Origin: an uncultured Chloroflexia bacterium | Lineage (GTDB): Bacteria; Chloroflexota; Limnocylindria; Limnocylindrales; CSP1-4 | Assembly: GCA_963746405.1 (NCBI GenBank) | Contig: CAVVAV010000003.1 | Span: forward strand, 933,589 to 997,588 | Length of the DNA stretch: 64,000 nucleotides | Direction: 5' to 3' | Part shown: one piece after another, positions 43,361-59,427 of the stretch | Layout of the letters: the number at the start of each line of letters is the position of its first letter | Numbering within the stretch: position 1 is the stretch's first letter | Program-made: the position numbers and the translations under genes | Notes under the pieces: generated by a model | Told to the model about the DNA's origin: nothing | The model's input: the letters and a program-made list of their open reading frames with translations, nothing else | Databases searched by the model: none

Positions 43361-44794
43361 TCAGCGCACGGCGACCCGGAGGTTGCCGTACGGGAACGAC
43401 TCGGGGAAGCCGCCGATCTGCACGTAGTACGACGTGCCGGCCACCGTGTCGAACGTCACCGCCGACTGCAGGCTGCGACCCACCGGCACGACCGGGACAT
43501 CATCCACGCACGCACCTGGGACCGGCGTGAAGGCGCCGCCGCTGGACGTGTACACCGCGATGACGGTGTCGTAGTCACTGCCGGCGGTGTCGATCGTCAC
43601 GGGCGAACCCGTGCCGACGATCCGGTACCAGACCGTGTGCCCGACGGGGACCTCGAACACCTCGCCGTTCTCCTCGAAGGTCAGGCATTCGTACGGTGCC
43701 TCGCGGTTCGGCGACGCGCCCTTGGTCGCGACCGAGGTCTTCGAGCCGACCGTGAGCAGCTTCGCCCCGCTCGGCAGGTCGTTGGCCGGGACCTTGCCAC
43801 CGGGCTTGGGGCCCCTCGGGAAGGTGGTGATCTCCTTGCCCTTGGCGTCCACGCCGATGCAGGCGCCGAGGTCGAAGACCATGGTGCCGAGCCTGAGCGT
43901 TCCCTCCAGGTCGACGGTCGTGCCGCGCACGACGACCCGGGTCGTCGAGTTGCGGATCATGTAGTCGAATCGCTCGCCGGCGCCGACGATCTCGACGTGG
44001 ATGGAACCCCCGGCGGGGATCGGCTCGCCGGTCTCCGGGTCGAACGTCTCGAGCGGTGCGTCGAACACGTTGCCGACCAAGGTACCGAAGCCGAATGCCG
44101 CGATCTCCTGGGTGCCGTCGGCCGACGTGCCGAAAGCGTCGACGAACACCTCACTCTCGTTCAGGCTGGCGAACAGGAAGCCCGTCTCACCAGCGGCATT
44201 GGTCAATTCACAGCTCACGCTGCGGTCCGAGAAGTGGCGAACGATCGAGTTCGGGTTCGTCGTGAAGACGCTGACGGTGGTCGCGTCCGCGAAGCATTCG
44301 TCGAGCGAGAATGTCGAGGTGCCGATCGTGAGGGTGCCGCTCGGGTCCATCGGCTGCGTGACACCGCTGAACCGCTCCCGGCGGTTGCCGTCCTTGAAGG
44401 TGTCGTCGAACGGGATCGGGTCGCCCGCTGGGGTGAGGGTCGCGTTGAACGCGGCGACGCCGGCGGGGTCTCCGTTGCCGTCGATGAGCGGGATGGATCC
44501 CTGGAGGGCTGTGCCGTTCCAGGTGACGACGGGCGCCTGCCCGAAGTCCCGGAACCGGTCGGGGTTGCCGTCCGGCTCGTTGGTCGTCCAGTAGTCGACG
44601 AACGCGTCTGGCCCGAACTGCTGGGACGTGACGGCGCCGAAGAACACGAAGCCACTGCCCGCAGTGGCGGCCATGCCGTCGCAATTGATGCCGACCGTGC
44701 GGTCGGTGTAGCGCGTCGGGCGCGCCGCCGATGCCGTGGCGGGCAGTGTCGCGAGGATCGCGAGCGCAGCCACGATCGCCAAGAGCCGTCTCAT
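43361..44794 (-). CDS. Secreted protein with C-terminal PPC-like beta-sandwich domain, hypothetical
   Basis: Start MRRLLAIVAALAILATLPATASA after GGGAGGGA; C-term SDYDTVIAVY...YYVQIGGF resembles pre-peptidase C-terminal domain. Confidence 0.6.
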   Translation of the reverse strand: MRRLLAIVAALAILATLPATASAARPTRYTDRTVGINCDGMAATAGSGFVFFGAVTSQQFGPDAFVDYWTTNEPDGNPDRFRDFGQAPVVTWNGTALQGSIPLIDGNGDPAGVAAFNATLTPAGDPIPFDDTFKDGNRRERFSGVTQPMDPSGTLTIGTSTFSLDECFADATTVSVFTTNPNSIVRHFSDRSVSCELTNAAGETGFLFASLNESEVFVDAFGTSADGTQEIAAFGFGTLVGNVFDAPLETFDPETGEPIPAGGSIHVEIVGAGERFDYMIRNSTTRVVVRGTTVDLEGTLRLGTMVFDLGACIGVDAKGKEITTFPRGPKPGGKVPANDLPSGAKLLTVGSKTSVATKGASPNREAPYECLTFEENGEVFEVPVGHTVWYRIVGTGSPVTIDTAGSDYDTVIAVYTSSGGAFTPVPGACVDDVPVVPVGRSLQSAVTFDTVAGTSYYVQIGGFPESFPYGNLRVAVR

Positions 44795-45012
44795 CCGTGT
44801 CCCTCCCTCGCCCCGGACGCGGCCTGCCGCCGCATCCTGCGGGGCGCTCCCTCCTGTCGGCGCGCGTGCTGGGGGTCCAACGCAGCGCCCTGACCGGGCA
44901 AGTCTAGGCATCCGCGTAGCGGTTGCAAGGCCCGGTTTCGCGGAGGCGGACTGCCGGTCGCCGCGCCCCGCGGGCTTGACGGGTTCGGGGCGTGTTGTAG
45001 TATGCAACAACG

Positions 45013-45264
45013 ATGCTGACCGTGCCTGAGGCCGCGCGACGCGCAGGGCGCAATCCGGAGACCATCCGACGATGGATCCGTGAGGGCAAACTGCGCGCCC
45101 GCAAGGTCGGGACGCAGCATGTCCTCGAGGAGGCCGACCTCGCTGAAGTACTCGGAGCGTTCGAGGATACGGTCGAGCTGCCGCCCGAATGGCAGCGAAC
45201 CTTCTGGGGCGGTGCCATGCCGGACGTCGTCGCGGCCGTCCGACGGTCTCGCGCGGGACACTGA
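45013..45264 (+). CDS. Antitoxin, excisionase/MerR-like HTH (VapB-like)
   Basis: MLTVPEAARRAGRNPETIRRWIREGKL HTH; 83 aa; adjacent to PIN toxin gene. Confidence 0.7.
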   Translation: MLTVPEAARRAGRNPETIRRWIREGKLRARKVGTQHVLEEADLAEVLGAFEDTVELPPEWQRTFWGGAMPDVVAAVRRSRAGH

Positions 45265-45265
45265 C

Positions 45266-45670
45266 GTGCTGCTGGTCGTGGATGCCAGCGTGATCGTCCA
45301 GGTCAGCCTCGCGGGCGGCTCGTTGGGGCCGCTCGAGGATCACGACCTCATCGCCCCGACGCTGTTGGCATCGGAGGTCACCTCGGTCCTGTGCGAGATG
45401 ACGCACCGCGGTGAGGTTCCGCATGACCACGCGCGCGTGGCCGTTGGGAGGCTGGAGAGCCTGCCGATCCGCTACGAGCGTCCGGACGGCCTTGCGGAGC
45501 GCGCATGGGACCTCGCGCGATCCCTCGGATGGGCCAAGACGTACGACGCCGAGTACCTCGCCCTGGCGCTCATCAATGAGGCGCCGCTCATCACGATCGA
45601 CGAACGCATGCGACGCGGGGCGGGCCACGTCGTGTCGATGCCGAGTCCGACCGAGCTCGCGGCGATCTGA
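45266..45670 (+). CDS. vapC: PIN-domain toxin VapC
   Basis: LLVVDASVIV (first Asp), later acidic residues; GTG 2 nt after antitoxin stop. Confidence 0.7.
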   Translation: MLLVVDASVIVQVSLAGGSLGPLEDHDLIAPTLLASEVTSVLCEMTHRGEVPHDHARVAVGRLESLPIRYERPDGLAERAWDLARSLGWAKTYDAEYLALALINEAPLITIDERMRRGAGHVVSMPSPTELAAI

Positions 45671-45745
45671 TGGAGGGTGGGGGAGGGGTGCCGTCGCCAC
45701 GACGCTGAGCCCTGCGAGGGAGTCACGCTGCGCTACGCTGCGACG

Positions 45746-46510
45746 GTGACCGCAGTCTCGTTCGCCGTCGAGGGTCGGGTCGCGCTCGTGACCGGCGCGA
45801 CCGGTGGCATCGGCGCCGACCTGGCCATGGCGTTCGCCGAGGCCGGCGCACGGGTGGGCGTCGCCGGGCGGGCGGGGGAGCGCGTCGACGCCGTCGTCCG
45901 CGCCATCCGCGCTACGGGTGGGGAAGCCTCCCCCGTCGAGCTCGATCTGACCGACCGGGCGTCGATCGAACGCGCCGTCGCGCAGGTTGTCGACACATTC
46001 GGCCGGCTCGACATCCTGGTCAACAACGCCGGGCTCGGGACAAACCACGATGCGATCGACGCGACCGAGGCCGAGTGGGACGAGCTCTTCGCGGTCAACG
46101 TGCGTGGGCTGTTCTTCGCCTCGCAGTCGGCCGCCCGAGTGATGCTGCCGCAGGGCTCTGGACGCATCATCAACATGGCGTCACAGGCGGGCCTCGTGGG
46201 CATCCCGCGCCACGCGGCCTATTCGGCAAGCAAGGCGGCGGTGATCGGCCTGACGCGCGTGCTGGCGCTCGAATGGTCGCCGCACGGCGTGACGGTCAAC
46301 GCCGTCGCCCCGACCTGGGTCTACACGCCCGGGACGGCGGAGCGCCTGGACGATCCGGCGTTCCTCGCGTCGGTCCTGGAACGGATCCCGGCTGGCCGGG
46401 TCGCGACAACGGCCGATGTCGCTGCCGCGGTGCTGTATCTGGCCTCGCCGGCGGCAGGGATGGTCACAGGGACCGTCCTGACGGTCGACGGCGGCTGGAC
46501 GGCGCGGTAG
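45746..46510 (+). CDS. SDR family oxidoreductase
   Basis: VTGATGGIG, NNAG, YxxxK (YSASK); alt ATG start 45677. Confidence 0.85.
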   Translation: MTAVSFAVEGRVALVTGATGGIGADLAMAFAEAGARVGVAGRAGERVDAVVRAIRATGGEASPVELDLTDRASIERAVAQVVDTFGRLDILVNNAGLGTNHDAIDATEAEWDELFAVNVRGLFFASQSAARVMLPQGSGRIINMASQAGLVGIPRHAAYSASKAAVIGLTRVLALEWSPHGVTVNAVAPTWVYTPGTAERLDDPAFLASVLERIPAGRVATTADVAAAVLYLASPAAGMVTGTVLTVDGGWTAR

Positions 46511-46539
46511 AGCGGCCATCCAGGCCCTGCGAAGGCTCT

Positions 46540-47289
46540 CTAACCACTTCCGATAAGGTGAGTTATGTCTGACTGGGGACGGAGATGGTCCGCGGCGGAT
46601 TCATGAACTCGAGACGACCCTATTCTGTGCTTTGGGGTCTCGCCCAGCCGATCGATTAGGGCGTTGAGGCCGCCGGTAAGCCCGAGAGACGCAATCCCTA
46701 AGATGGCCAACAGGACCGCGACGAGCGTCCATCGCCGCGCGGTAAATAGGTCTTGCGCCACACGGGATCCGCTCAGGTACGCGGATTGGGTAGCGCGGCG
46801 TAGTGCCTCAGCTGCGGCGGCTTGGAGCGACGCCTCGGTTGGCTCCTCGTTACGAAGCGACCGCGCGAGGATTCCGAGGCGATCGAGACTTATGCCGCCC
46901 GATTCGGTCAATCCGCTCGCGAGCGACGCTATTGCAATCGCAATCGCCAGACTAACGTCTGCAAGCAGCAAGATGACGAGTGGCGTCCAATCCCAAAGGC
47001 TCGCATATGGCGCAGGGATCACGACTGCCGTAGCACCAAGCGCGAACGGAACCAACGCAAGGAGAAGCGTGAGATGGGTTGAGACCTTGGACTGGAGGCT
47101 ATCAACAGCCCCATCGGCTAGCTCCAGGCTCTTAATCGCGAGCTCTAGGGCTACCTCGCTTCGCCGCTCATCCCCTGCCGCGTCGCGAATCCACTCTGGT
47201 GGCGGTGTTGCCGGAAGTCGCTCAAGCCCTTCAGCGGTTCGTGCATCGCCTGCGATGAATGCGACAAATCGGCGGAGCGTCCCGGCCAC
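46540..47289 (-). CDS. Membrane protein (3 predicted TM), hypothetical, low-GC island
   Basis: GTG start abuts ATP-grasp stop (TAAGTG); hydrophobic segments. Confidence 0.55.
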   Translation of the reverse strand: MAGTLRRFVAFIAGDARTAEGLERLPATPPPEWIRDAAGDERRSEVALELAIKSLELADGAVDSLQSKVSTHLTLLLALVPFALGATAVVIPAPYASLWDWTPLVILLLADVSLAIAIAIASLASGLTESGGISLDRLGILARSLRNEEPTEASLQAAAAEALRRATQSAYLSGSRVAQDLFTARRWTLVAVLLAILGIASLGLTGGLNALIDRLGETPKHRIGSSRVHESAADHLRPQSDITHLIGSG

Positions 47290-48219
47290 TTAACGAGTCC
47301 TCGTTAGCGCTCTAGCGAGTGCTTCCGTGATCCGTCCGTTATATGTATCGTCGAGAAAGAGCCACTGTCCGTTTGGATTCGCTTCGAGAAATACGCTCTC
47401 GCCGCTGCGGCTCACAATCCAGTCTTGGGATGAATACCCGAGCCCGAGGGCGCTCGCCACACGCAGCGCATCGTCGGCAACTCTTGGATGGGCACCATCG
47501 GCCACGACAAAGCGTTGATGATTCTCGGTCTTGAGCCGCCAATCGAGATCCTCGGTGGTTAACGCGGCTACGAAAGCCGCGCGTTCGACTGTTACCACGC
47601 GTAGGTGTGTGGATGCCTCCATGAGCTCTTGCAGGATTACTGGTACTCCGCCGAGGTCACGAAGCTGCTCAGGCCCGACCTCCGTTGTGAACGCGACCCT
47701 GGGAGGATCGTTCGAGACCAGCCCGTAGCGAATTGGCTTAACCACAACGCGACCATGATCGCGAACAAATCGCCGTGCGCGCCGTGCGTCTGACGTAACA
47801 ATTGTCTTGGGAATTCGAAGCCCGAGTGAGTTGGCAACCGCGAGCTGGTAGCCCTTTACCTCTGACCGCTGCAAGACGTGCGGAGGGGTGAGCCAGTCCA
47901 CAGTCGTGTGGGCCGCGAACATCAGCGTTTCGCGCCACTCTTGAATGACAAACTCGGAATACAGACTGTCAACGTCGTCGACTACCACGCGACCGGGCCG
48001 CCTCCAGAACCCGCGCGTTGTAGCGTCTATGAGATGTCGGTTCCCAACGATCCAGTGGGGTGGATCAGGCGTCCAATAGAAAGACGCGGAAGCCAACGTA
48101 TCCCTGGACAACCGAATCGTTCGAGCGCCTAGGCGAAAGAGGGCCTGCTCAAGCGCGTCGCCATGTTCATCCGAGGGGGCCGATACTAGGAGGACTTCAG
48201 CCCCAGCTGGGCTCGTCAT
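47290..48219 (-). CDS. ATP-grasp enzyme, RiPP-maturase-like (graspetide/microviridin-type)
   Basis: 309 aa; LDWR and FLEANPNGQWLFLD motifs recalled from MdnC/ATP-grasp ribosomal peptide maturase families; low GC. Confidence 0.65.
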   Translation of the reverse strand: MTSPAGAEVLLVSAPSDEHGDALEQALFRLGARTIRLSRDTLASASFYWTPDPPHWIVGNRHLIDATTRGFWRRPGRVVVDDVDSLYSEFVIQEWRETLMFAAHTTVDWLTPPHVLQRSEVKGYQLAVANSLGLRIPKTIVTSDARRARRFVRDHGRVVVKPIRYGLVSNDPPRVAFTTEVGPEQLRDLGGVPVILQELMEASTHLRVVTVERAAFVAALTTEDLDWRLKTENHQRFVVADGAHPRVADDALRVASALGLGYSSQDWIVSRSGESVFLEANPNGQWLFLDDTYNGRITEALARALTRTR

Positions 48220-48436
48220 CAGTCGTCTCAGGAGGCTGGCTCCTGGTCAATCTCGTACCGCCAGGGACCTCGCCAGGAACTGATCTAGCAACCCTAGCCA
48301 GCAATGGGAGTCCTCCTCCCACGACTAGGTCAATCGCTGTCAGCCCGGGGTCATCCGATGTCTCGGCTGTCTTGGTGAAGACGGTTTGGCCTTCCGCGTG
48401 GCCTTGGACCTCAACTGAGATCTTTTCGAGGATCAT
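48197..48436 (-). CDS. Candidate precursor peptide/small ORF upstream of ATP-grasp
   Basis: Only ORF in the 345-nt gap; G-rich SD upstream; MILEKISVEVQGHAEGQTVFTKTAETSDDPGL rich in T/S/K and D/E; 3' part rare-codon, may be non-coding. Confidence 0.25.
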   Translation of the reverse strand: MILEKISVEVQGHAEGQTVFTKTAETSDDPGLTAIDLVVGGGLPLLARVARSVPGEVPGGTRLTRSQPPETTDDEPSWG

Positions 48437-48565
48437 GTGTCGCACTCCCGTGCTCCCTCCCCCGTCGCCGGCAGCGTCGGGCCGTCAATCCAGAGTCTAT
48501 CGACCGAACAGTCGGTTTGTACACACTCGCCACTCTGCTCGTGACTGATCCAATACGAATTGCAG

Positions 48566-50888
48566 CTAGGCGAGGTAGGAGCGGACTCTTCCGGGTGCGT
48601 ATAGAAAGCGATCAATCGACGCCGATACGTTGTAGTAGTACGGCGGATGCTCGATGTAGTTCGCCAGAAGCGCCTCGAGGAACGCGGGATCAGCGCGCTG
48701 GGTGATGACAGCCACGGCCGCGACCCGGATTTGTGCACTCTCGCTGTGGAGGAGCGCCTCGAACTCTGAGATAGGCACGTTGCCGTCGGCGCCTAGCGCC
48801 TGAACCGCCGCGTGGACAAGCTCTGCGTCGGCGCTCCCCAGGAGCGAACGCGCAAACTCCGTGCCCCCAAGCCGAAGACTCGCTGCGGTCAATGCTTCAC
48901 GCTCTTCGTCCATCGTGAGCCTCGCGGACTCTGCGAGCAACGGCGCATCACGACGCTCTCCAACCAATGCTAGGGCGGTTGCCACGTCAGCCTTCGCGGA
49001 CCGATTGATGTGCTCCAGGGCCTGTCGGATGAGGTCAATGTCGTCGGCGCCTCGCACGTCGGGGGAAAGCCGAGCGAGCAATTGCGCGGCGGCATTAGTT
49101 CGGCGCCCGTAGAGATAGCCGAACACGCTCTTCTCACCAGCCAGCGCCGGTAGCTCCGCAGCCGCCGAAGAGGCCCACTCATCCTCTGTCTGGGACAGGA
49201 GTTGGCGCGCTTCGTCCGCCATCGACTCGCCGTCCAGCCACGTCAAGGCCTCCCATGCCTCGTGATCAAGCGCCGACCCAGCGGACCGACGCAACTCATC
49301 AAGGGGGATGCTCATTGCCATTAGGCGCGGCCTGAGCGCGGTCGCCCATGGGCTTCGTTCATCGACGAGCCGATCCAAAAGCTGTTGTGCCAAGACTCTC
49401 CGAGCGTCGACGTAGTCCAGGACAAGGTTGGTCAGGTCGGAACTCGCGTCGTCCACCGCGTTGGCAAGCTGATCAACACTACAATTCCCCCGGTTCAGCA
49501 ACTCAACCAGCGCTGCCCGTCGCAACGGAGTCTTTATGCGCCGCTTGATCAGGTTCGCGAGATCGACGTCGTCCAGCAGGGCGACGTCCCGCTGGAGGAG
49601 TTCGCGAGCCCATGGCCTAATGTCGTATCTGTCGCCGATCGCAACGGCCACAAGTGGACTGTGGTCGCCTTGAAAGGCTGCTCTAAGCGCTTGGACATCC
49701 GCGGTGCCGACGTCGTCGGGTGCCCCCTCGACGATTGCACGCAATAGCCCCTCGTCATGCCGCTCGGCCAGACCTGCCAAGTACTTGGTTGCGTTCATCG
49801 AGCGCAATGGATCGGCAAGCAGCTTCACCCATCGCTCGGCCTTTTCGGCCAGTTCTGATTGCGTCGTTTCGTCGTTCGCCCAAAGGTCGCGCGGTCGCAC
49901 GGACATGATGTTGAGCAGACGCAGCGCGCCCCGCGCCGCGGTCAAGTCGTCGCCTTGGGCCATCGCCGCGAGCCGCCTCTCCAAATCGGCTTCTCCGACA
50001 ATTGCCCAACCCGGCACGACCAATTCTGCGACGTCCTCGGACGCGAAATCTGTCGCGAGTGTCTTGAGCCACTGCTCGGCTTCGCCCACGATCAACGAGA
50101 TCTCTGCATGACGACGGTACAGACGGTTCACCACGTGGGTGGGCAAGGCGTCCCCGTTGCCAATTGCGATCGAGAATAGAAGTAGGCGGTCAGGATCAAG
50201 CGAGGTGGAGGGTCGGTCACCGGCGACGACGCGTCGGAATCCATCGAGAACGTCTGTGATCTGTTCCTGTGCTGATCTGCGCTCGCTGTCGGGGTCCTCC
50301 TCTTGCGAACTGGTCGGACGCCCTGCGGCGGAATCGCCGGAGTCGGCAGGGGCGGCCGTAGGTCCGGGAGCGGTCCGGCCTTCCGTCACGGCGCGATCTG
50401 TGACCACGCCCACGAGGTACGCGACGAGCTGTCTATCTAGATCAGGAAGCGAATCGAACTCGCGATACAACGCAAGCTGCTCGTCGCGGATTCGTCCCCG
50501 AAACTCAAGCACACGCTGCAGCCTGCGGACCGGCGTCAGCCTCCTCGCCTTCGAGAAGGCGTTTGAAGAAGAGTCCAATAGCCGGGGTGTGCGCCGTGGC
50601 TCGCCTTCCGACGACTCGTTCGAACTCTTCGGCGAAACCGGAATCGTTAGCCCCGGTATTGGACCCCCACCGTCGGTGAAGTAGCCCGACAAAGATGTCG
50701 CAAGAATCCACCAACGGGTTGATCAGGTCCTGTGGACGACCGAGGTCCGGGGCAACTCGCTCCCAACCGGTTACGCGAATTCGAACGCCCAGACTGACGC
50801 CGCACATTTCCACGACGCGGTCCGCCACAACGCGCACCAAAGCGCGTTCCTCGGGAAGATCACCTGGTGAAGCGATGAATAGTTCCAA
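48566..50888 (-). pseudogene. DUF4062 N-domain + HEAT/ARM-like repeat protein, frameshift near 50533
   Basis: N-term MELFIASPGDLPEER (DUF4062-like, ORF 50505..50888) continues in other frame into 708-aa ORF with C-terminal HEAT-like repeats. Confidence 0.55.
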
Positions 50889-50934
50889 CTCAATTGCCTC
50901 GGTGACCAGCGTTCATCCTCCTACACCCACGGCC

Positions 50935-51225
50935 CTAATCGAGGTTGGCTAGTCCGTTTCCCGATGGCGTTGTCTTATCTTCGGGCCTCGTCGTGGTCGC
51001 TAGCTCTGGCCACAATCGTCTTTGGAATCCGCTTTCGGCTGGCAGCGCGAGATGGCCATCTTGTCGTCCCTCCTTCGCGCTCGTCCTGAAGTCGCACTTG
51101 GGAAGCCCGGGCCCAGCCGGCCCCACCGTACCTGGGGTTCCAGGCGGGTCGGAGCAGGGCCAGCAGAAACCGGCGACGAGTCGAGCGGACACGCCGGTCG
51201 CCGCCTGGGCCGCGAAACCGATCAC
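50935..51225 (-). pseudogene. Relic fragment of DUF2075-like gene
   Basis: AAQAATGVSARLVAGFCWPCSDP...KCDFRTSAKEG vs AQAATGATARLVAGFCWPWSDP...KSDFWASAKEG in 52553..54478; ~70-nt DNA identity; high-GC patch. Confidence 0.6.
51147..51214. repeat. ~70-bp dispersed repeat copy A (matches 53042..53110)
   Basis: CAGGGCCAGCAGAA(A/G)CCGGCGACGAGTCGAGCGG...GCCGCCTGGGC shared. Confidence 0.7.
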
Positions 51226-52494
51226 TTCCGCTTCACGGCGTCAGCGACGATATCAAGCAGCCGTTTCACCAGATCATTTCCGTCGTCAGCTGTACTTCCA
51301 GCTACTGGCGCTGTGAGAAACGACCGTTTAGCGAGGTCATACTTGAGCTCGTTACGCTTCTCGTCGTCGAGCAACGCGACGAAGGGATCAAGCGCGGTGA
51401 GGTCGAGTTCCGACTTTCGAGCGCGCCACTCGGTCTGCCGGTGGCGGCCTGACTCTGCGAGTGCATAGAGACCGATGCCGAGAAGAGGCAGCGCGACAAG
51501 CAGCCTGCCTGTTAGCCATTGCAGTGTGAACTCTGTGGCGCCGGTAGTGACGATTGTGAAGACTCCCCAGGCGGCAATAGCGACGAAGAGACCGATGCCG
51601 ACCCATCGCCACCGGTCGGCGGCCTTGTGCTCGGATTCGGCTTGGCCCAGATAACCCCCGCTCGCTGCCTCCGCACCCAGGGCACTTAAGACCTTCCGCG
51701 CGTCGTCGCGGGACGCCGTCATGTCTTCGAGCAGGGTTTCAGCGCCTGCGCGGAGCTCCTCCGCGGAAGTGCTTGCAAGTTCACGCTGCTCGGTCATGAA
51801 CGTGGCGTGTTCCTCGGCCGCGCGCGCAGTCTGCTGTCGCGAACTGCTCAGCCCGCTGCGACTCCGCTGTGGAGAACTGTGACTGGAACTGGGCAATCGC
51901 CGCGTCAAGCCGGCTCTTCTGGTTCGAGATCTCAGCCGTCAACTCCGTCTGCCTTGCCGCCAGGGGCGCGAGAGCGGACTGGGCCTCTGCCGTGGCCTGA
52001 TCTACGAGCTGTTCGATCTCGGAGCGCACTCGTGCAAGGGCTTGCTCAAGTTCCGCCGCTCGGTCTCGGTTTCGTCCTGCTTCACCGCGGAGGTCCTCCA
52101 GAACCTCCTCCACGTCCCGCCGAAGCGCCGCGATCGTCTGCCGTGCTTCGCGAGCCGGGCGCTGTAGCCAAGTCGTGAGGGCGTCGAGGACTTGCTCGAG
52201 GTAAGCGTTCGCACTGGTGAGCTGGGCGGCGTCGCCGGACGAGACGTACGCGCTTGTCGCGTTCTGAACCTGGCTGAGTGCAGGCGAAGGTGCGTCGATG
52301 ATTCGCGCCGACAGAAGTTGGGGATCCGCGCTGAGAATGATCGCGCGGGCGACTTCGATACCTGCCCTGAGTCGCTGCTGGTCGTCCCGTTCTTTGTCGG
52401 ATTTGGGGTCCGGCAGTTTGCTCAGAAGTTCGACGAGGGCACGCGTTAGTGCGACCGTCTGACTGCCAGCATGCCGGTCACGCCACTCACTCAT
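51222..52494 (-). pseudogene. Coiled-coil protein with two C-terminal TM helices, frameshift at (GC)n ~51817-51826
   Basis: ORFs 51781..52494 and 51222..51908 join into Q/A/E-rich coiled coil then WRWVGIGLFVAIAAWGVFTIV and LLVALPLLGIGLYALA TM. Confidence 0.5.
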
Positions 52495-52552
52495 CGCAGC
52501 GCCTTACAGAGCGGGAGGGTCCGCAGATAGCGCGGGGTATAGGCGGCACGAG

Positions 52553-54478
52553 CTACTCCTCGTACGTCGCGGCAGCTTGCGCTGCCATATGAGTGTCCGT
52601 GGTTGCGAGTTCCGTTCGGCTCAGGAAGAAGTCGCGCGTCGGGGCGTCCATGAAGTAGACGTAGCAGCCGCGGAGACCGCGGGTCAGCAGGACGCGGTAG
52701 GTGCTCTTGACGTAGCGGGTGAACTCGGCCTCGGTGACGCCGCGGCGGACGACGCGGTCGTGCGACTGGTCGCGCTGGCCGACCCATCCCCCGTCCATCG
52801 GCCGGTAGACGAGGTCGGGGCCGACGATCACGCCGACGTAGTCGAACTCGAAGCCCTGCGCCGTGTAGACGCAGCCCACCTGGTCGATCCCCTCCTTCGC
52901 GCTCGCCCAGAAGTCCGACTTCGGGATGCCGGGGCCGAGCCGGCCGACGCCGTCCCTGGCGTTCCAGGGCATCGACCACTCCCCTACCCTGACGTCCGGC
53001 ACGAGCTGGCCGTCGTCGTCGGGGTCGGACCAGGGCCAGCAGAAGCCGGCGACGAGTCGAGCGGTCGCGCCGGTTGCCGCCTGGGCGCGGATCTTCTGCT
53101 CGAGCTGGCCGATCGAGCCGACGATCTGGAAGTCGAACTCGTCGTCCATCGACCAGAGCACCTGCGGCGTCCGGTTGAGCTCGAGCGTGTTGTCGACCCA
53201 CTGGATGAACGAGTCGGAGCCGTTCGAGCGGAACTGCGCCTCGAGCTTGAAGTCGCGCACCTCGATCGAGCGCTTGGCGGCCTCCTCGCGGATCAGGTCG
53301 GTGCTGCCGACCTCGCCCGGGCGCACGACCTGCAGGTCATCGATGAAGAAGACGGTGACCCGGCTCGAGTCCAGGATGTCGTCGATCTGGGACTTGCCCG
53401 TGCGCGCCTTCGCGGGCGTGAAGCGGCTCGTGCTGATCGTCCGGATGCGGTGGGCCTCGTCGAGGATGGCGACGTCGAGCTTGTCGGTGACGGTCGCGGT
53501 GTCGCGGAAGTACTTGAACAGCGCGCCGGCTCGACCGCCGACGATCTTGCGCAGGTTCTCCGTGAACGCCTTGGAGCCGGTCAGGTGGAGCGTGCTGAGG
53601 CCGCGCTCGGCGAGCTCCGCGACGAGGTTGAGGGCGATGACCGACTTGCCGGTGCCCGGGCCGCCTTCGATGAGGAAGATGACGTTCTGCTCGTTTGTGC
53701 CCGCGTGGCCGACGGCGTCGAGGATGGCGTTGTAGGCCACGAGTTGTTCGTCGAGGAGCACGAAGGTCGGCTCGATGCGGATGACGCGGGCGACGTGGTC
53801 GAGCAGGCGCTTGTGTGGCTTGAACGCAGTCGCGGCGACGCGCTCCAGGATCTCGCCCTCGTCCGGGCCGGCGATGTGCTGATCGAGGAACGTCGCGAGC
53901 GCATCGGACTGGTCGCCGGCAAACGCGGGGTTGGAACCAAGGAGCGCCGTGAAATCCGCGTGGTAGAGCGGAGACATCGGGTCGTGCTGCGCGTAGTGAA
54001 GGTACGCGCAGGCATCGAGGGCGATCGCGCGGTCGTCCGAAAACGCGGGATGGGTATCCAGCAGGTACCGCTGGTACTGCGCGACCTGGCGCGACGGGTG
54101 GAGCGTGTCGCGCGGCTTGCCGCCGTAGTCGACGGTGACGCAGTCGGTGATGTTCGACCGGCCGACTTCGGTCCACTGCTTGAGCTCGACGATCACGGCC
54201 GCGTCGCGGCGCGTGTCGGGGTTCGAGCCGGTGATGAGGACGTCAAGCCGCTTCGAGCTGAGCGGCATCTTGAGTTCGACGAGGATGCCCTGATCGGTCA
54301 GGTCGGCCGTCTGGAGCACGTGGGCCATCGCGCTGAGGCTGTTGCGCCAGCTCGTGACTTCGCTCGGAGATGGTCGGTAGCGGAACTCGTCGAACCAGCG
54401 GTCGCTCAGCATGTTGGCGAGCCGAGCCTGGGTTGCGTCCGCGATGAACTGCCGGGTCGAGCCCTGGTAGAGGTGCAA
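52553..54478 (-). CDS. DUF2075-like protein: N-terminal PD-(D/E)xK-like (NERD-type) segment + SF1-like P-loop ATPase
   Basis: ILVELK / VIVELKQW segments; Walker A IEGGPGTGKSV; Walker B LDVAILDEAHRI; TTG start with G-rich SD. Confidence 0.65.
   Translation of the reverse strand: MHLYQGSTRQFIADATQARLANMLSDRWFDEFRYRPSPSEVTSWRNSLSAMAHVLQTADLTDQGILVELKMPLSSKRLDVLITGSNPDTRRDAAVIVELKQWTEVGRSNITDCVTVDYGGKPRDTLHPSRQVAQYQRYLLDTHPAFSDDRAIALDACAYLHYAQHDPMSPLYHADFTALLGSNPAFAGDQSDALATFLDQHIAGPDEGEILERVAATAFKPHKRLLDHVARVIRIEPTFVLLDEQLVAYNAILDAVGHAGTNEQNVIFLIEGGPGTGKSVIALNLVAELAERGLSTLHLTGSKAFTENLRKIVGGRAGALFKYFRDTATVTDKLDVAILDEAHRIRTISTSRFTPAKARTGKSQIDDILDSSRVTVFFIDDLQVVRPGEVGSTDLIREEAAKRSIEVRDFKLEAQFRSNGSDSFIQWVDNTLELNRTPQVLWSMDDEFDFQIVGSIGQLEQKIRAQAATGATARLVAGFCWPWSDPDDDGQLVPDVRVGEWSMPWNARDGVGRLGPGIPKSDFWASAKEGIDQVGCVYTAQGFEFDYVGVIVGPDLVYRPMDGGWVGQRDQSHDRVVRRGVTEAEFTRYVKSTYRVLLTRGLRGCYVYFMDAPTRDFFLSRTELATTDTHMAAQAAATYEE
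53042..53110. repeat. ~70-bp dispersed repeat copy B
   Basis: See 51147..51214. Confidence 0.7.
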
Positions 54479-54526
54479 CCCCTCCCCTTCCCCGATGGGC
54501 CGCCGTGACGGTCGACGACGTGGTGA

Positions 54527-55582
54527 CTATACGGCCTGATCCGACGGCGGATCCGCCCCCGCGCTGCCAGACATCGGCGTGGTCTTCCCCTCCCCGTCTC
54601 GATTCGTCATCGAGCCTTTATCGCGGCCCGGGCGCGCTGCCCATGGTCCCGTCGCCGGGGCGAGGGTCGTCTCGATGCGGCGCCCCAAGCGATCGACCTC
54701 CGCGACGTCGATCGCGGGCGGAAGCGCTCGGATGCGGGCCAGCAGGTCCGTGTGCGACGTCAGCGTGACACCGGCGATCGACTTGGGGCCGAACAGCCCG
54801 AACTGACCGCCCACGACGCAGATAACGCACTCCACGTGCTCGACCGACAGTGCGGCCCTCAGCGACGCGGCCTGCCGCTCGACCTGCTCGACGAATGTCG
54901 TCGCCCGATGACCCTTCAGGAACAGCTCTTTGCCCCGGACGCGGACGTCACCCGCGTAATGCTTCGTCTCGATGACGATGACGCCGGGCGGGCCAACGAC
55001 GATGTGGTCGATGTTGTCGCGGCCACCCGGCCGGCGCCGGTCGTGGAAGACGTGGAAGCCATCCGCCTCCAGCATGGCGAGTGTCCGCCCGATCTGCTCC
55101 TCGCCAGCCGCACCGATGCGCCAGGCCAGCACATCCGGTGGTTTGGCATACAGCTCGGCGAGGGTCCACGCGAGGCCGGCGAAGATCAGGGCAACGCCGA
55201 GGAGCGGCAGAGTAGACCCTTGTGGCACGAGGGCGATCCCCGCGAGGATCATGACGCCCCCGACGGCGAGGATGTCGGGCCGGCGCCTGCGTATCCGAGC
55301 CTCATGCGCCGCCAGCCGACGCTCATACGTCGCGCGTGTCGAACCGCCCGCCCGTGGCGACTCGATCGCCGTGGTCATGGCCGTGATCGGCGGGGTCGGC
55401 GCCGTTCCGTCCACCGCGGTCTCGAGCGCGCGTGTGCCCCGGCAGGTCGGGAAGTGTGAGCACCCCCAGAAGGCAGCGTCGTCGGCGCGCCGGGTGCGCA
55501 GGATCATGGACGATCGGCAGCGCGGACATATCGGTGGTTCCGACTCAGTCCCGCTCCGTGCAGTCGCCGGCTGGGCGGCCAT
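54527..55582 (-). CDS. NERD-domain protein with N-terminal C4 zinc ribbon and two TM helices
   Basis: Start [11 protein letters not shown] after GGGGGAGGGGAG; CPRC...CSHFPTC zinc ribbon (topo-type); NERD motif [20 protein letters not shown]. Confidence 0.7.
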
Positions 55583-55742
55583 CGCTCCCCTCCCCCGGTT
55601 CGACCCGCGAGGGTCGCTATCGACCCGCAGTGTACGGGAGGGCATCGCGCTCGCTCCCCTCGGCTGCGCGGCGGGATTGCGGATGGCATTCGACGCCCAT
55701 AGGCTTGAGACCAGCCATCCCGCCAGAAAGTCGCCTTCCCGT

Positions 55743-56774
55743 ATGAGCCTCGATGACTTCCCGCGCGTGTCTTTGATGTTCGGGCCGTCGCCTGCGCATC
55801 CGCTGCCACGCCTGAGCGCAGCGCTCGGAGGACGGGTAGAGATCTGGGCCAAGCGCGAGGACTGCAACTCGGGCATCGCCTTCGGCGGCAACAAGGTCCG
55901 CAAGCTCGAGTACCTGGTCGCCGATGCGCTGGCCAACGGCTGCGACACGCTGGTCTCCATCGGCGGGGTCCAGTCGAACCACACCCGCGCTGTCACGGGT
56001 GCCGCCAGACACTTGGGTCTCGGCGCCGTCACCGTCCAGGAGCACTGGGTCGACTGGGACGACCCCGGCTACGAAACCGTCGGCAACATCCAGCTGACGC
56101 GGATCATGGGTGGTGACATCCGGATGAACCCAGCTGGTTTCGATATCGGTGTGCGAGACAGCTGGCGAGAGGCGCTCGAGTCGGTCGAGAAGGCTGGCGG
56201 CAGGCCGTACCCGATCCCCGCGGGAGCCTCCGACCATCCGCTCGGGGGCCTGGGCTTCGCGAACTGGGTGCGTGAGGTCGCTGCGCAGGAGGCGCAGCTC
56301 GGGCTGCTGTTCGATCACGTCATCGTCTGCACCGTCACCGGCTCGACACACGCCGGGATGATCGCCGGGACGGCCCTGGAGGACCGAGGCGGCGGAAGTG
56401 GTCGCCGAGTGATCGGCATCGATGCGTCGAAGACGATCGAGCGGACGCGCGACCAGGTGACTCGGATCGCGCGCGCCACCGCCGAGCTGATCGGCGTGGA
56501 CCGTGAGCTGCGCGACGACGAGGTCACGTTGATGGATGGGTATGCAGGCCCGGTCTATGGCGTGCCCGACGACCAGACGATCGAGGCGATCCAGCTCGCT
56601 GCGCGGACCGAGGGGATGATCACCGACCCTGTCTACGAGGGGAAGTCGATGGCAGGTCTCATCGGGATGATCCGCTCCGGCGATATCCCGCCGGGTTCGC
56701 GGGTCCTCTACGCGCACCTCGGCGGACAGCCCGCCTTGTCGGCCTACGCGCACACTCCGGGACTGGGCGGCTAG
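55743..56774 (+). CDS. acdS: 1-aminocyclopropane-1-carboxylate deaminase
   Basis: Near full-length colinearity with recalled AcdS: FGPSP...[23 protein letters not shown]-Lys, [16 protein letters not shown]. Confidence 0.85.
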
Positions 56775-57976: not shown

Positions 57977-58185
57977 CGGGTCGAGTTCCTTCTACGGGGT
58001 CTGGATCCAAGCATCAAGCGTCCCCCGCGGGCTTTGCCCCACCGATCGGGTTCGCCGCGTGACAGCCGGCCGACAGACCCGCTGGGCTAGCTCGTGTCAG
58101 CGCACTCGGGATGGTGGCCGGATCATGCCCCAGCCGCCCGTCGCCTCCCGACGGCTCGCTGGTCGAGGTCGGCATACTCTCGATC

Positions 58186-59427
58186 ATGTCGTTCCTGCGA
58201 AAGCTCTTCGGGTCGGGGGATAAGCCGAGGCGGCCCTCCGCTCGACGCGCCTCGTCCCCTCCCCCGTCACGACCTCCGTCGCCGCCGGCTGGCACGCCGC
58301 CGCCTCGGATCCCGACGCTGGCTGAATCGTCGCCGCGGGCGCTGCACGCCTACTTCGAATACGTCGGCGGCGGGTCCTCGAAGTTCTACGCGGTCAGCCT
58401 GGAGGAGGAGGACGGGGAGACCTGGCGTGTCCGCTTCAACTTCGGGCGGATCGGGTCCCGCCGGGAATGGGCTACGCGTGTCGAGGGTGTGACGTGGGCA
58501 AAGGCAGCCACCACGTACGTGGCCTTGATCGACGAGAAGCAGGGTAAGGGCTACGAGATCCAGCGCTGGCCGGCGGCCCTGCGGCTGCCGGACGGCTCGA
58601 CGATCGAGGAGGATCCATCGGCGGACAGCGTCCAGACCCGCTTCCGAGCCGCGACCCGCGGCTCGCTGCCGCCTGAGACCGGCGGCACGATCGCCGGCGT
58701 CGCGCTGCCGGATGGTCGGCTCTATGCGCCCGAGCCAGAGGGTGGGTCACGCGGCGACGACCCCGTGATCTGGGCGTCCTCGGCGCCGGTCAAGGACGTG
58801 GCACGGATCTGGTCCCAGCTGGCCCTTGCGTTCCCGCAGACCGGAATCTGGCCGTTCGTCATCGACGCCTCGTTCGGCTTCGACGGATTCGACGAACGTC
58901 TCATGGATCTCCCGAGGGGCCGCCACACCGAGGTCATGACGATCCTCCGACGGGGCTGGAACGAATTGGTGGAGTCAGACGAGGACGATGAGGCCGAGGA
59001 GCTGTCCCCGTTCGGGAATGCGTTCCCCGGCCTCGCCCGACCGACGCCGTCGGATCAGCCGGCATCCATCGACGCCATCGTGGCGACGTTGAGCGGTCAT
59101 CTGGGTCTGGTCGCCGTCAACCGTCCGGCTGACATCCTCGATGCGGTCGGCTGGATGGGCGCCGCGAACTACGACGGCGACCCGCTCGACATGACCACGG
59201 TGCTCCGCTCATGGGAGCTTCGGTTCGACGCCTACGTCGTCGAGCTGGGCACGGACACGCTGACCCTCGCCGTGGGCCGCCCGGCGCGCGACCTCGAGTC
59301 GGCCCTGGCGATCGCCGCGGAGCACTACGCCTTCTGCCCCGACAACGTCCAGCAGGGCGAAGGGTCGATCCAGGCGTACGCTGAGAGCCTCGTCGACGCG
59401 GAGGTGTGGCCGTTCTGGTGGGACTGA
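58186..59427 (+). CDS. WGR-domain protein with C-terminal DUF4253-like domain
   Basis: WGR signature YFEYVGGGSSKFYAVSL...WRVRFNFGRIGS; P-rich linker; C-term ...EVWPFWWD. Confidence 0.6.
   Translation: MSFLRKLFGSGDKPRRPSARRASSPPPSRPPSPPAGTPPPRIPTLAESSPRALHAYFEYVGGGSSKFYAVSLEEEDGETWRVRFNFGRIGSRREWATRVEGVTWAKAATTYVALIDEKQGKGYEIQRWPAALRLPDGSTIEEDPSADSVQTRFRAATRGSLPPETGGTIAGVALPDGRLYAPEPEGGSRGDDPVIWASSAPVKDVARIWSQLALAFPQTGIWPFVIDASFGFDGFDERLMDLPRGRHTEVMTILRRGWNELVESDEDDEAEELSPFGNAFPGLARPTPSDQPASIDAIVATLSGHLGLVAVNRPADILDAVGWMGAANYDGDPLDMTTVLRSWELRFDAYVVELGTDTLTLAVGRPARDLESALAIAAEHYAFCPDNVQQGEGSIQAYAESLVDAEVWPFWWD

Follow-up and report, generated by a model that had tools for sequence, protein, structure and literature searches.

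A low-GC cargo block of 6.1 kb (46518-52610), found within a 64,000-nucleotide (nt) stretch of DNA from an uncultured Chloroflexia bacterium (contig CAVVAV010000003.1; hereafter the window, within which all coordinates are given), very probably fills a chromosomal defence-island hotspot, that is, a fast-turnover slot in a high-GC Chloroflexota-like genome that holds unrelated and separately acquired modules. The older and ameliorated part of the locus would consist of a NERD/Zn-ribbon membrane protein and a stand-alone Nhi-like nuclease-helicase of the DUF2075 family. The slot itself would reach from the last ~20 codons of the DUF2075 gene to the stop codon of a short-chain dehydrogenase (SDR) gene, with a vapBC-like pair just beyond. 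Its present cargo appears to be three unrelated modules, each horizontally acquired and each of which would work alone: a graspetide operon, a DUF4062-HEAT gene, and a gene for a coiled-coil protein with two transmembrane (TM) helices, here called coiled-coil/2-TM.

An original prediction, made from the sequence alone, had listed eight tightly packed minus-strand genes as a candidate island combining defence functions with a peptide made on the ribosome and modified after translation (RiPP). The minus strand does carry all plausible genes between the SDR gene (45677-46510) and a PALP gene (55743-56774), and the open reading frames (ORFs) of the prediction were all present where it had placed them. 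Its positions stand. What it had missed is that two genes are frameshifted: the coiled-coil and 2-TM ORFs belong to one gene, and the DUF4062 and HEAT ORFs to another.

Composition and breakpoints of the cargo block

The mean GC of the window is 69%. Positions 46511-52552 have a GC of 62.0% against 69.8 ± 1.0% (minimum 67.8) in 6-kb windows elsewhere, and in tetranucleotide usage they lie at a distance of 0.374 from the rest of the window, where background windows give 0.09-0.16. The mosaic that had been claimed, two low-GC stretches with a high-GC DUF2075 relic between them, was reproduced by windowed GC and tetranucleotide analysis, with 61.3% and 63.5% for the two stretches and 68.9% for the relic core. 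The composition of the DUF2075 and NERD genes is indistinguishable from background, with a tetranucleotide distance of 0.162 and GC at third codon positions of 0.93 and 0.83. Composition, breakpoints and relic all agree with the further claim of nested insertions into an older DUF2075/NERD locus, in that younger low-GC cargo lies beside a pair of native composition.

Relatives were drawn from four Chloroflexota metagenome-assembled genome (MAG) loci, reached via a lineage-specific flanking protein, and from 80 metagenome loci of 444 DUF2075 relatives; loci are numbered with the prefix L. The closest comparison came from L008, an uncultured Chloroflexia MAG whose flanks on both sides are 93-95% identical to the window at the nucleotide level. 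By blastn, the homology ends at 52611, 58 nt before the DUF2075 stop codon, and restarts at 46517, 7 nt past the SDR stop codon. Between these same breakpoints the sister genome has a different cargo of 6.9 kb, also of low GC (58-65%), with genes for a nucleotidyltransferase (PDC-S09-like), a GNAT protein and an ASCH protein (PDC-M11B, 6e-20). The comparison with syntenic loci that the original prediction had recommended thus yielded two defined breakpoints with other cargo between them, and the same block was not seen in relatives.

The abrupt compositional change, in a source that appears to be metagenome-assembled, might also be produced by an assembly chimera in which foreign DNA had been joined into the MAG. 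We consider this highly improbable: each breakpoint falls at the end of a gene, the very same pair of breakpoints encloses another low-GC cargo in an independent MAG, and the block contains a relic with homology to the resident DUF2075 gene.

Gene content at the slot differs among the window, L008 and four further contexts. The order is CHAT, DUF2075, Mrr_cat, relic, other genes and PIN/HTH_17 in L006/L007; NERD, bPH/SHOCT, an OLD-family ATPase and vapBC in L011; MmeI_N, DUF2075 and an S-adenosylmethionine-dependent (SAM) methyltransferase in L012; and DUF2075 followed by ArsR, AHSA1 and a hydrolase in L051. The DUF2075 gene is 80-93% identical at the nucleotide level in the syntenic loci L006, L008, L012 and L051. 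Its alleles are collinear up to '...FFLSRTE', after which come unrelated tails of 18-37 amino acids (aa) and unique cargo (window 52553-52611; L008, L006, L012), so that the extreme 3' end of the DUF2075 gene changes together with the cargo downstream of it.

Independence of the cargo modules

The original prediction had suggested that the combination is a defence/RiPP system not yet described. On such a reading the graspetide enzyme would cooperate with the nuclease-helicase, the TIR-like protein and the membrane effector as parts of one system. Tight packing on one strand with short gaps would suit such a system, as would the fact that all of the families are conflict-type. However, tblastn of every window module against all of the 100+ fetched loci found no two modules together, and the graspetide trio recurs with unrelated neighbours in L001, L003/L004, L005, L104/L105 and L106/L107. 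The sister genome with its 93-95% identical flanks has other cargo, keeping the DUF2075 gene without any of the other modules. Composition indicates at least two ages of acquisition, and a pseudogene fragment lies between modules. Cooperation of all eight genes therefore seems to us most unlikely, and we have set this claim aside in favour of a slot filled with independent modules.

The DUF2075 and NERD genes of native composition

The resident anchor of the slot is an intact DUF2075 gene of Nhi-like architecture (52553-54478, minus strand; 641 aa). Its product matches SLFN-g3_helicase (PF09848) in Pfam at 1.4e-87 over the entire profile, and in PADLOC it matches PDC-S41 (1.6e-18), Nhi (2.6e-13) and AbiO (about 1e-13). 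Residues invariant in 75 homologues are E68, D79, E98-L-K100, the Walker A motif GGPGTGKS at 272-279, and D340-E341, and the N-terminal region is predicted from its sequence to carry a PD-(D/E)xK-type motif. Nhi and Nhi-like proteins are single-gene defences with an N-terminal nuclease and a DUF2075 helicase. The window protein resembles them in having a D...ExK motif ahead of a Walker A/B DUF2075 helicase and in belonging to a family that frequently stands alone: at 35 of the 84 DUF2075 loci there is no co-directional downstream ORF, in some of them because the contig ends. It differs in that its matches to the Nhi and AbiO models are confined to the helicase core (aa 238-426; Nhi profile positions 180-339 of 470), its N-terminal domain having no Pfam match at E <= 10 and no PDB sequence match.

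Next to it lies the NERD gene (54527-55582, minus strand; 351 aa), whose product has an N-terminal Zn ribbon of the topoisomerase type (Zn_ribbon_Top1, 1.3e-08), two TM helices at about aa 101-146, and a NERD domain (Pfam, 7.4e-18). A homologue with 47% identity occupies the corresponding position in L011. We considered whether the NERD gene or the coiled-coil gene is an obligate partner of DUF2075 and rejected this, given that no related locus has the same genes on either side. The defence-family profile searches that had been proposed for the locus returned matches to DUF2075, NERD and DUF4062, together with the PADLOC candidates PDC-S41 and PDC-S60.

A second piece of DUF2075 sequence, the high-GC relic of the original prediction, is real and marks a past rearrangement. 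It is a decayed, non-coding internal fragment of ~160 nt (51056-51215, minus strand; equivalent to aa ~461-531) that begins a few bases past the stop codon of the coiled-coil/2-TM gene. Compared with 52890-53086 of the intact gene it shows ~87% nucleotide identity, a 52-nt deletion and three indels of 1-2 nt (tblastn, 1e-10). With 87-89% identity to all three of the DUF2075 alleles compared, it has no closest allele of origin among them. Lying between the DUF4062-HEAT and coiled-coil modules, the fragment may well be the scar of an earlier recombination, which would have placed the coiled-coil gene beside the intact DUF2075 gene.

Displaced DUF2075 fragments were found downstream of the main gene in three of 84 loci: the window, L006/L007 and L061. 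That of L006 (14064-14180) and L007 (7496-7705) covers aa ~455-527 at 89.5% nucleotide identity to the main gene and lies downstream of Mrr_cat. The window relic and the L006/L007 fragment cover nearly the same segment; either the relic is ancestral to both lineages or this conserved segment is a favoured site of crossover. In the distant locus L061 (4433-6577) the displaced part is the last ~70 codons (aa 553-622, 60% aa identity); an RVT_1 reverse transcriptase on the opposite strand sits between the DUF2075 gene and the displaced copy, with RadC and a ResIII helicase following. These loci also raise, more weakly, the idea that recombination repeatedly takes place in the conserved 3' part of DUF2075 genes, capturing downstream cassettes and leaving fragments behind.

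As a separate observation, fragments of MmeI-family (type IIL restriction-modification) genes lie upstream of both a DUF2075 orthologue (L012:38-364) and a homologue of the coiled-coil/2-TM gene (L092:3-743).

The graspetide cassette

The first cargo module is a trio of minus-strand genes encoding an 82-aa graspetide precursor peptide with two core repeats, TVFTKTAETSDD and TRLTRSQPPETTDDE (48197-48445), a graspetide-type ATP-grasp peptide maturase of 309 aa (47290-48219), and a 249-aa membrane partner with three hydrophobic segments, here called 3-TM (46540-47289). The graspetide-type ATP-grasp assignment made from the sequence agrees with NCBIfam matches to TIGR04187 (4.6e-44), MvdC (7e-30) and MvdD (4.4e-28), against 5.8e-06 for RimK. 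The TIGR04187 score of 150.9 bits is under the curated cut-off of 350, and those for MvdC and MvdD are also far under theirs; the enzyme belongs, on sequence grounds, to a clade that is related to, yet separate from, TIGR04187 (the GRASP_SAV_5884 subfamily). It keeps every invariant column in a 20-sequence alignment. The small ORF and the 3-TM protein had likewise been listed before; their likely roles, graspetide precursor and conserved cassette partner respectively, had been missed.

The precursor is built of two units, each with a leader-like motif of proline and two hydrophobic residues and then a core of the form T.x.T(K/R/E)...ET(T/S)D(D/E). Such a two-unit precursor lies directly upstream of the ATP-grasp gene in five loci (window, L001, L002, L003, L005), and the window precursor matches that of L001 by tblastn at 1.8e-08. 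Homologues of the 3-TM partner lie directly downstream of the ATP-grasp gene in L001, L003 and L005 (33-40% identity, E 1e-16 to 1e-19). With 52 representative clusters among 1.84 billion, the family of the partner is a small one, and the window member has no Pfam, PADLOC or NCBIfam match and no relative in the plasmid collection. Viral contigs held only distant ATP-grasp relatives (<=38% identity), without the membrane partner.

The end of the precursor gene overlaps the annotated ATG of the ATP-grasp gene by 23 nt (48197-48219). A GTG at ~48195, we note in passing, would place the start of the enzyme immediately after the precursor stop codon. The ATP-grasp call in the source record is much shorter at 232 aa and lacks the conserved N-terminal residues D17 and H19.

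Graspetide loci have been described with a single ATP-grasp enzyme, repeated cores, a leader motif of proline and hydrophobic residues, and an uncharacterised membrane protein proposed as peptide exporter (PMC8939145). The window cassette is like the thuringinin/plesiocin-type clusters of that work in having its precursor directly upstream of one MvdC/MvdD-related ATP-grasp gene, repeated cores, a leader-like motif of proline and hydrophobic residues, and a small membrane protein downstream. It is unlike them in that its ATP-grasp enzyme scores far below the TIGR04187, MvdC and MvdD cut-offs, is at most 39% identical to annotated plasmid-borne maturases, and has a partner with no plasmid relative. 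By family resemblance, the ATP-grasp enzyme would form cross-links between the side chains of Thr/Lys and those of Asp/Glu in both core repeats of the precursor, and the 3-TM partner would export the cross-linked product or give immunity against it.

Seven contexts of the cassette were compared, the window and six loci with ATP-grasp homologues at 35-47% identity. In each of them the enzyme has a small ORF ahead of it, and a protein of ~190-240 aa follows it in all except L002, where the downstream TM partner is not recognisable and the neighbours of the ATP-grasp gene are insertion sequence (IS) elements. The trio has GmrSD, Dcm/Vsr, DndB, ThsB-TIR and caspase genes as neighbours in L001, Dcm/Vsr and HATPase_c_3 in L005, a KAP NTPase in L104/L105, GAP1-N2 with DO-GTPase2 and transposases in L106/L107, and SufBD with other housekeeping genes in L003/L004. 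At L001:7860-9671 the precursor has, immediately upstream and on its own strand, a ThsB-type TIR gene, a caspase-like Peptidase_C14 gene and a gene for a 157-aa protein; the arrangement is reminiscent of the window, where the TIR-like DUF4062 gene lies upstream of the precursor.

These contexts raise the idea that the trio is an unrecognised small mobile conflict or defence module of defence islands, its cross-linked peptide acting, for example as a protease inhibitor, against phage, or as one half of a toxin/immunity pair, as opposed to an ordinary cluster for secondary metabolism that came to lie here by chance. This would explain its place beside immune genes: defence-type genes adjoin the trio in five of the seven contexts (window, L001, L005, L104/L105, L106/L107), the cassette is small, rare and patchily distributed, and RiPPs near defence systems have been reported in general terms (PMC11118758). 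We think it unlikely nonetheless. Seven contexts are few and come with no background control, the trio of L003/L004 is flanked by housekeeping genes, PADLOC gives no match, viral contigs lack a close relative, and variable regions gather all sorts of accessory genes. The position of the trio among immune genes in five of seven contexts is thus a lead only, from a small and uncontrolled sample.

The DUF4062-HEAT and coiled-coil/2-TM genes and their frameshifts

The second module is a gene for a DUF4062 (TIR-like NADase) domain followed by a HEAT-like solenoid (48566-50888, minus strand; 773 aa after removal of one base). As sequenced it appears as a DUF4062 ORF (50505-50888) overlapping a 708-aa HEAT-like ORF (48566-50692), both on the minus strand, with a +1 frameshift at ~50514-50528 splitting the two parts. 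The frame-repaired protein matches DUF4062 proteins of 755-820 aa at 99% coverage, the best being P0068 at 45% identity. The DUF4062 match in Pfam is 4.7e-07 (30.4 bits, cut-off 24.7) and the HEAT match of the 708-aa ORF is weak. PADLOC gives PDC-S60 at 5.6e-16 over the N-terminal 110 aa only (profile positions 6-117 of 906) and no match for the HEAT-like part. A glutamate, E88, is invariant in 24 family members. In an AlphaFold2 model of the homologue P0068 (pLDDT 89) an alpha/beta N-terminal domain precedes an all-helical solenoid, which weakly resembles PP2A-A, CAND1 and importin-beta (E about 1e-3). Plasmid DUF4062 proteins match only the first ~25%, which makes the solenoid a candidate lineage-specific sensor. 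The L093 homologue adjoins an AAA_15/21 ATPase gene and a HEPN gene.

DUF4062 has been described as a TIR-like NADase, a single-gene abortive-infection defence that needs an auxiliary domain (bioRxiv 10.64898/2026.05.01.722283; 10.64898/2026.06.25.731849). The original prediction had the families right; it missed the frameshift and that the gene belongs to a single-gene defence family described in those 2026 preprints. Our protein is like Swarozyc and Evangelion in its N-terminal DUF4062 domain above the Pfam threshold and its defence-island context, and its invariant E88 may be the counterpart of the Glu at position 97 (E97) of KpSwz. Like them, too, it has a long C-terminal auxiliary region, which lies in the same polypeptide as the effector in all full-length homologues and is split from it in the window copy as sequenced. 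It differs from them in that the auxiliary region is a HEAT/ARM-like solenoid of ~600 aa that is not common to plasmid DUF4062 proteins; the likeness to KpSwz and Eva01 is one of description, not of sequence alignment. By analogy with Swarozyc and Evangelion, sensing of a phage component would fall to the solenoid and depletion of NAD+ to the TIR-like domain, leading to abortive infection.

The third module is the coiled-coil/2-TM gene (51222-52494, minus strand; 423 aa after removal of one base). As sequenced, a coiled-coil ORF (51781-52494) and a 2-TM ORF (51222-51908) overlap in different frames on the minus strand, separated by a +1 frameshift at ~51823-51840. The repaired protein, with TM helices at about aa 296-349, aligns with P0125 (429 aa) at 65% identity and 100% coverage, gapless over the junction. 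Searches against Pfam, PADLOC and NCBIfam gave coiled-coil noise only, with weak LeoA, LmuB, ZorA and SMC matches, and assignment to S_4TM was rejected on a weak match (E 0.087). The AlphaFold2 model of the homologue was poor (pLDDT 68.5, pTM 0.33) and Foldseek returned nothing below E 0.3. The gene is rare and has no match in the plasmid collection; its homologue in L092 follows MmeI-like and Mrr genes. The protein is possibly a membrane effector.

Are the frameshifts genuine, and the cargo mostly a graveyard in which the DUF4062-HEAT and coiled-coil/2-TM genes are pseudogenes and only the graspetide trio, DUF2075 and NERD remain functional? Both genes match full-length homologues only after removal of one base, neither site is a long homopolymer, the source record also lists the DUF4062-HEAT fragments apart (P0066, 237 aa; P0067, 634 aa), and a bona fide decayed DUF2075 relic lies between the two genes. 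Beyond the single indel, however, both frames are conserved and open throughout, free of other stops or deletions. In related MAGs of the MFD series a DUF2075 gene that is otherwise conserved has multiple frameshifts, as in long-read consensus errors, and the source contig is 1.57 Mb long. The orthologue at L008:72-1994, for instance, falls into four frames although its aa identity is 89-96%, a pattern typical of such errors and a caution in reading the two window frameshifts. We regard decay of both genes as a serious possibility, somewhat short of an even one.

Flanking genes

To the left of the block, on the plus strand, a vapB-like antitoxin gene of HTH_17/MerR type (45013-45264; Pfam HTH_17 1.1e-10) and a vapC-like PIN toxin gene (45260-45670; Pfam PIN 2.1e-07, 32 bits, cut-off 23.6) overlap by 5 nt, which confirms the nearby vapBC pair that had been claimed. 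The pair lies 0.85 kb from the block, outside the variable part, and is conserved in relatives: the vapB-like protein is 70% identical to the HTH_17 protein of L006 and the vapC-like protein 40% identical to the PIN protein there. Its overlapping genes, with a small DNA-binding protein ahead of a PIN toxin, resemble type II VapBC toxin-antitoxin systems, the difference being the HTH_17/MerR-like antitoxin. Between this pair and the block, the SDR gene (plus strand; adh_short_C2 1e-66) forms the left anchor of the slot, and on the far side the plus-strand PALP gene, for a 1-aminocyclopropane-1-carboxylate (ACC) deaminase-like enzyme dependent on pyridoxal phosphate (PALP 5.8e-45), forms the right flank.

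An 895-aa minus-strand ORF at 43361-46048 was rejected as one gene, its first ~245 codons being an antisense shadow of the plus-strand vapBC-like pair. The real gene within it (~43361-44950, ~529 aa) has no Pfam match and is conserved beside an Rce1-like gene in all related loci. The 895-aa ORF served as synteny query, and its matches are usable despite the antisense part. Further along the plus strand, at 58111-59427, lies a gene for a 438-aa protein in which a WGR domain is combined with DUF4253 at the C-terminus (1.7e-36); its neighbours are SRPBCC, FMN-reductase and glyoxalase-like genes.

Discussion

The locus shares with known defence-island hotspots its clustered defence families (DUF2075, DUF4062, NERD and a PIN pair), its atypical composition, a toxin-antitoxin pair at the edge, and cargo that differs among close relatives while the two breakpoints stay the same. 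It departs from them in placing one boundary inside the 3' end of a defence gene, where the last ~20 codons of DUF2075 vary with the cargo, in carrying a RiPP cassette as well, and in the lack of an integrase, a tRNA or att repeats. With no tRNA found in the window, no integrase to explain entry into the slot and no flanking direct, inverted or att-like repeats of meaning, recombination in the conserved flanks is the most economical inference for how cargo is exchanged. A promoter and terminator scan of the locus gave signal below chance, and an Rfam scan found no RNA family.

Several points weigh against our interpretation of the locus as a fast-turnover slot of independent working modules. 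The lack of tRNA, integrase and repeats leaves it without a direct explanation of how the cargo entered. Two of the three cargo modules are frameshifted and thus may not function here. The relatives are MAGs or metagenome contigs, and L008 is itself frameshifted, so that assembly errors are possible. Independent contexts are few, from one to seven loci per module. Biochemical functions are read from family membership throughout, and the recombination history too is an inference from the present arrangement.

The island is built from known or recently described families together with one RiPP cassette and one orphan membrane protein, and contains no new system; it is a real locus of a fairly ordinary kind. 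It documents turnover of a defence-island slot, with defined breakpoints between flanks that are 93-95% identical, in a poorly studied lineage of uncultured high-GC Chloroflexota. It also extends the DUF4062 NADase defence family, itself only just described, by a HEAT-solenoid lineage, and it draws attention to a rare graspetide cassette, equipped with a conserved membrane partner, whose neighbours tend to be immune genes. Its value is that of a catalogue entry and of a source of three candidates open to testing, namely the graspetide trio and the genes for the DUF4062-HEAT and coiled-coil/2-TM proteins.

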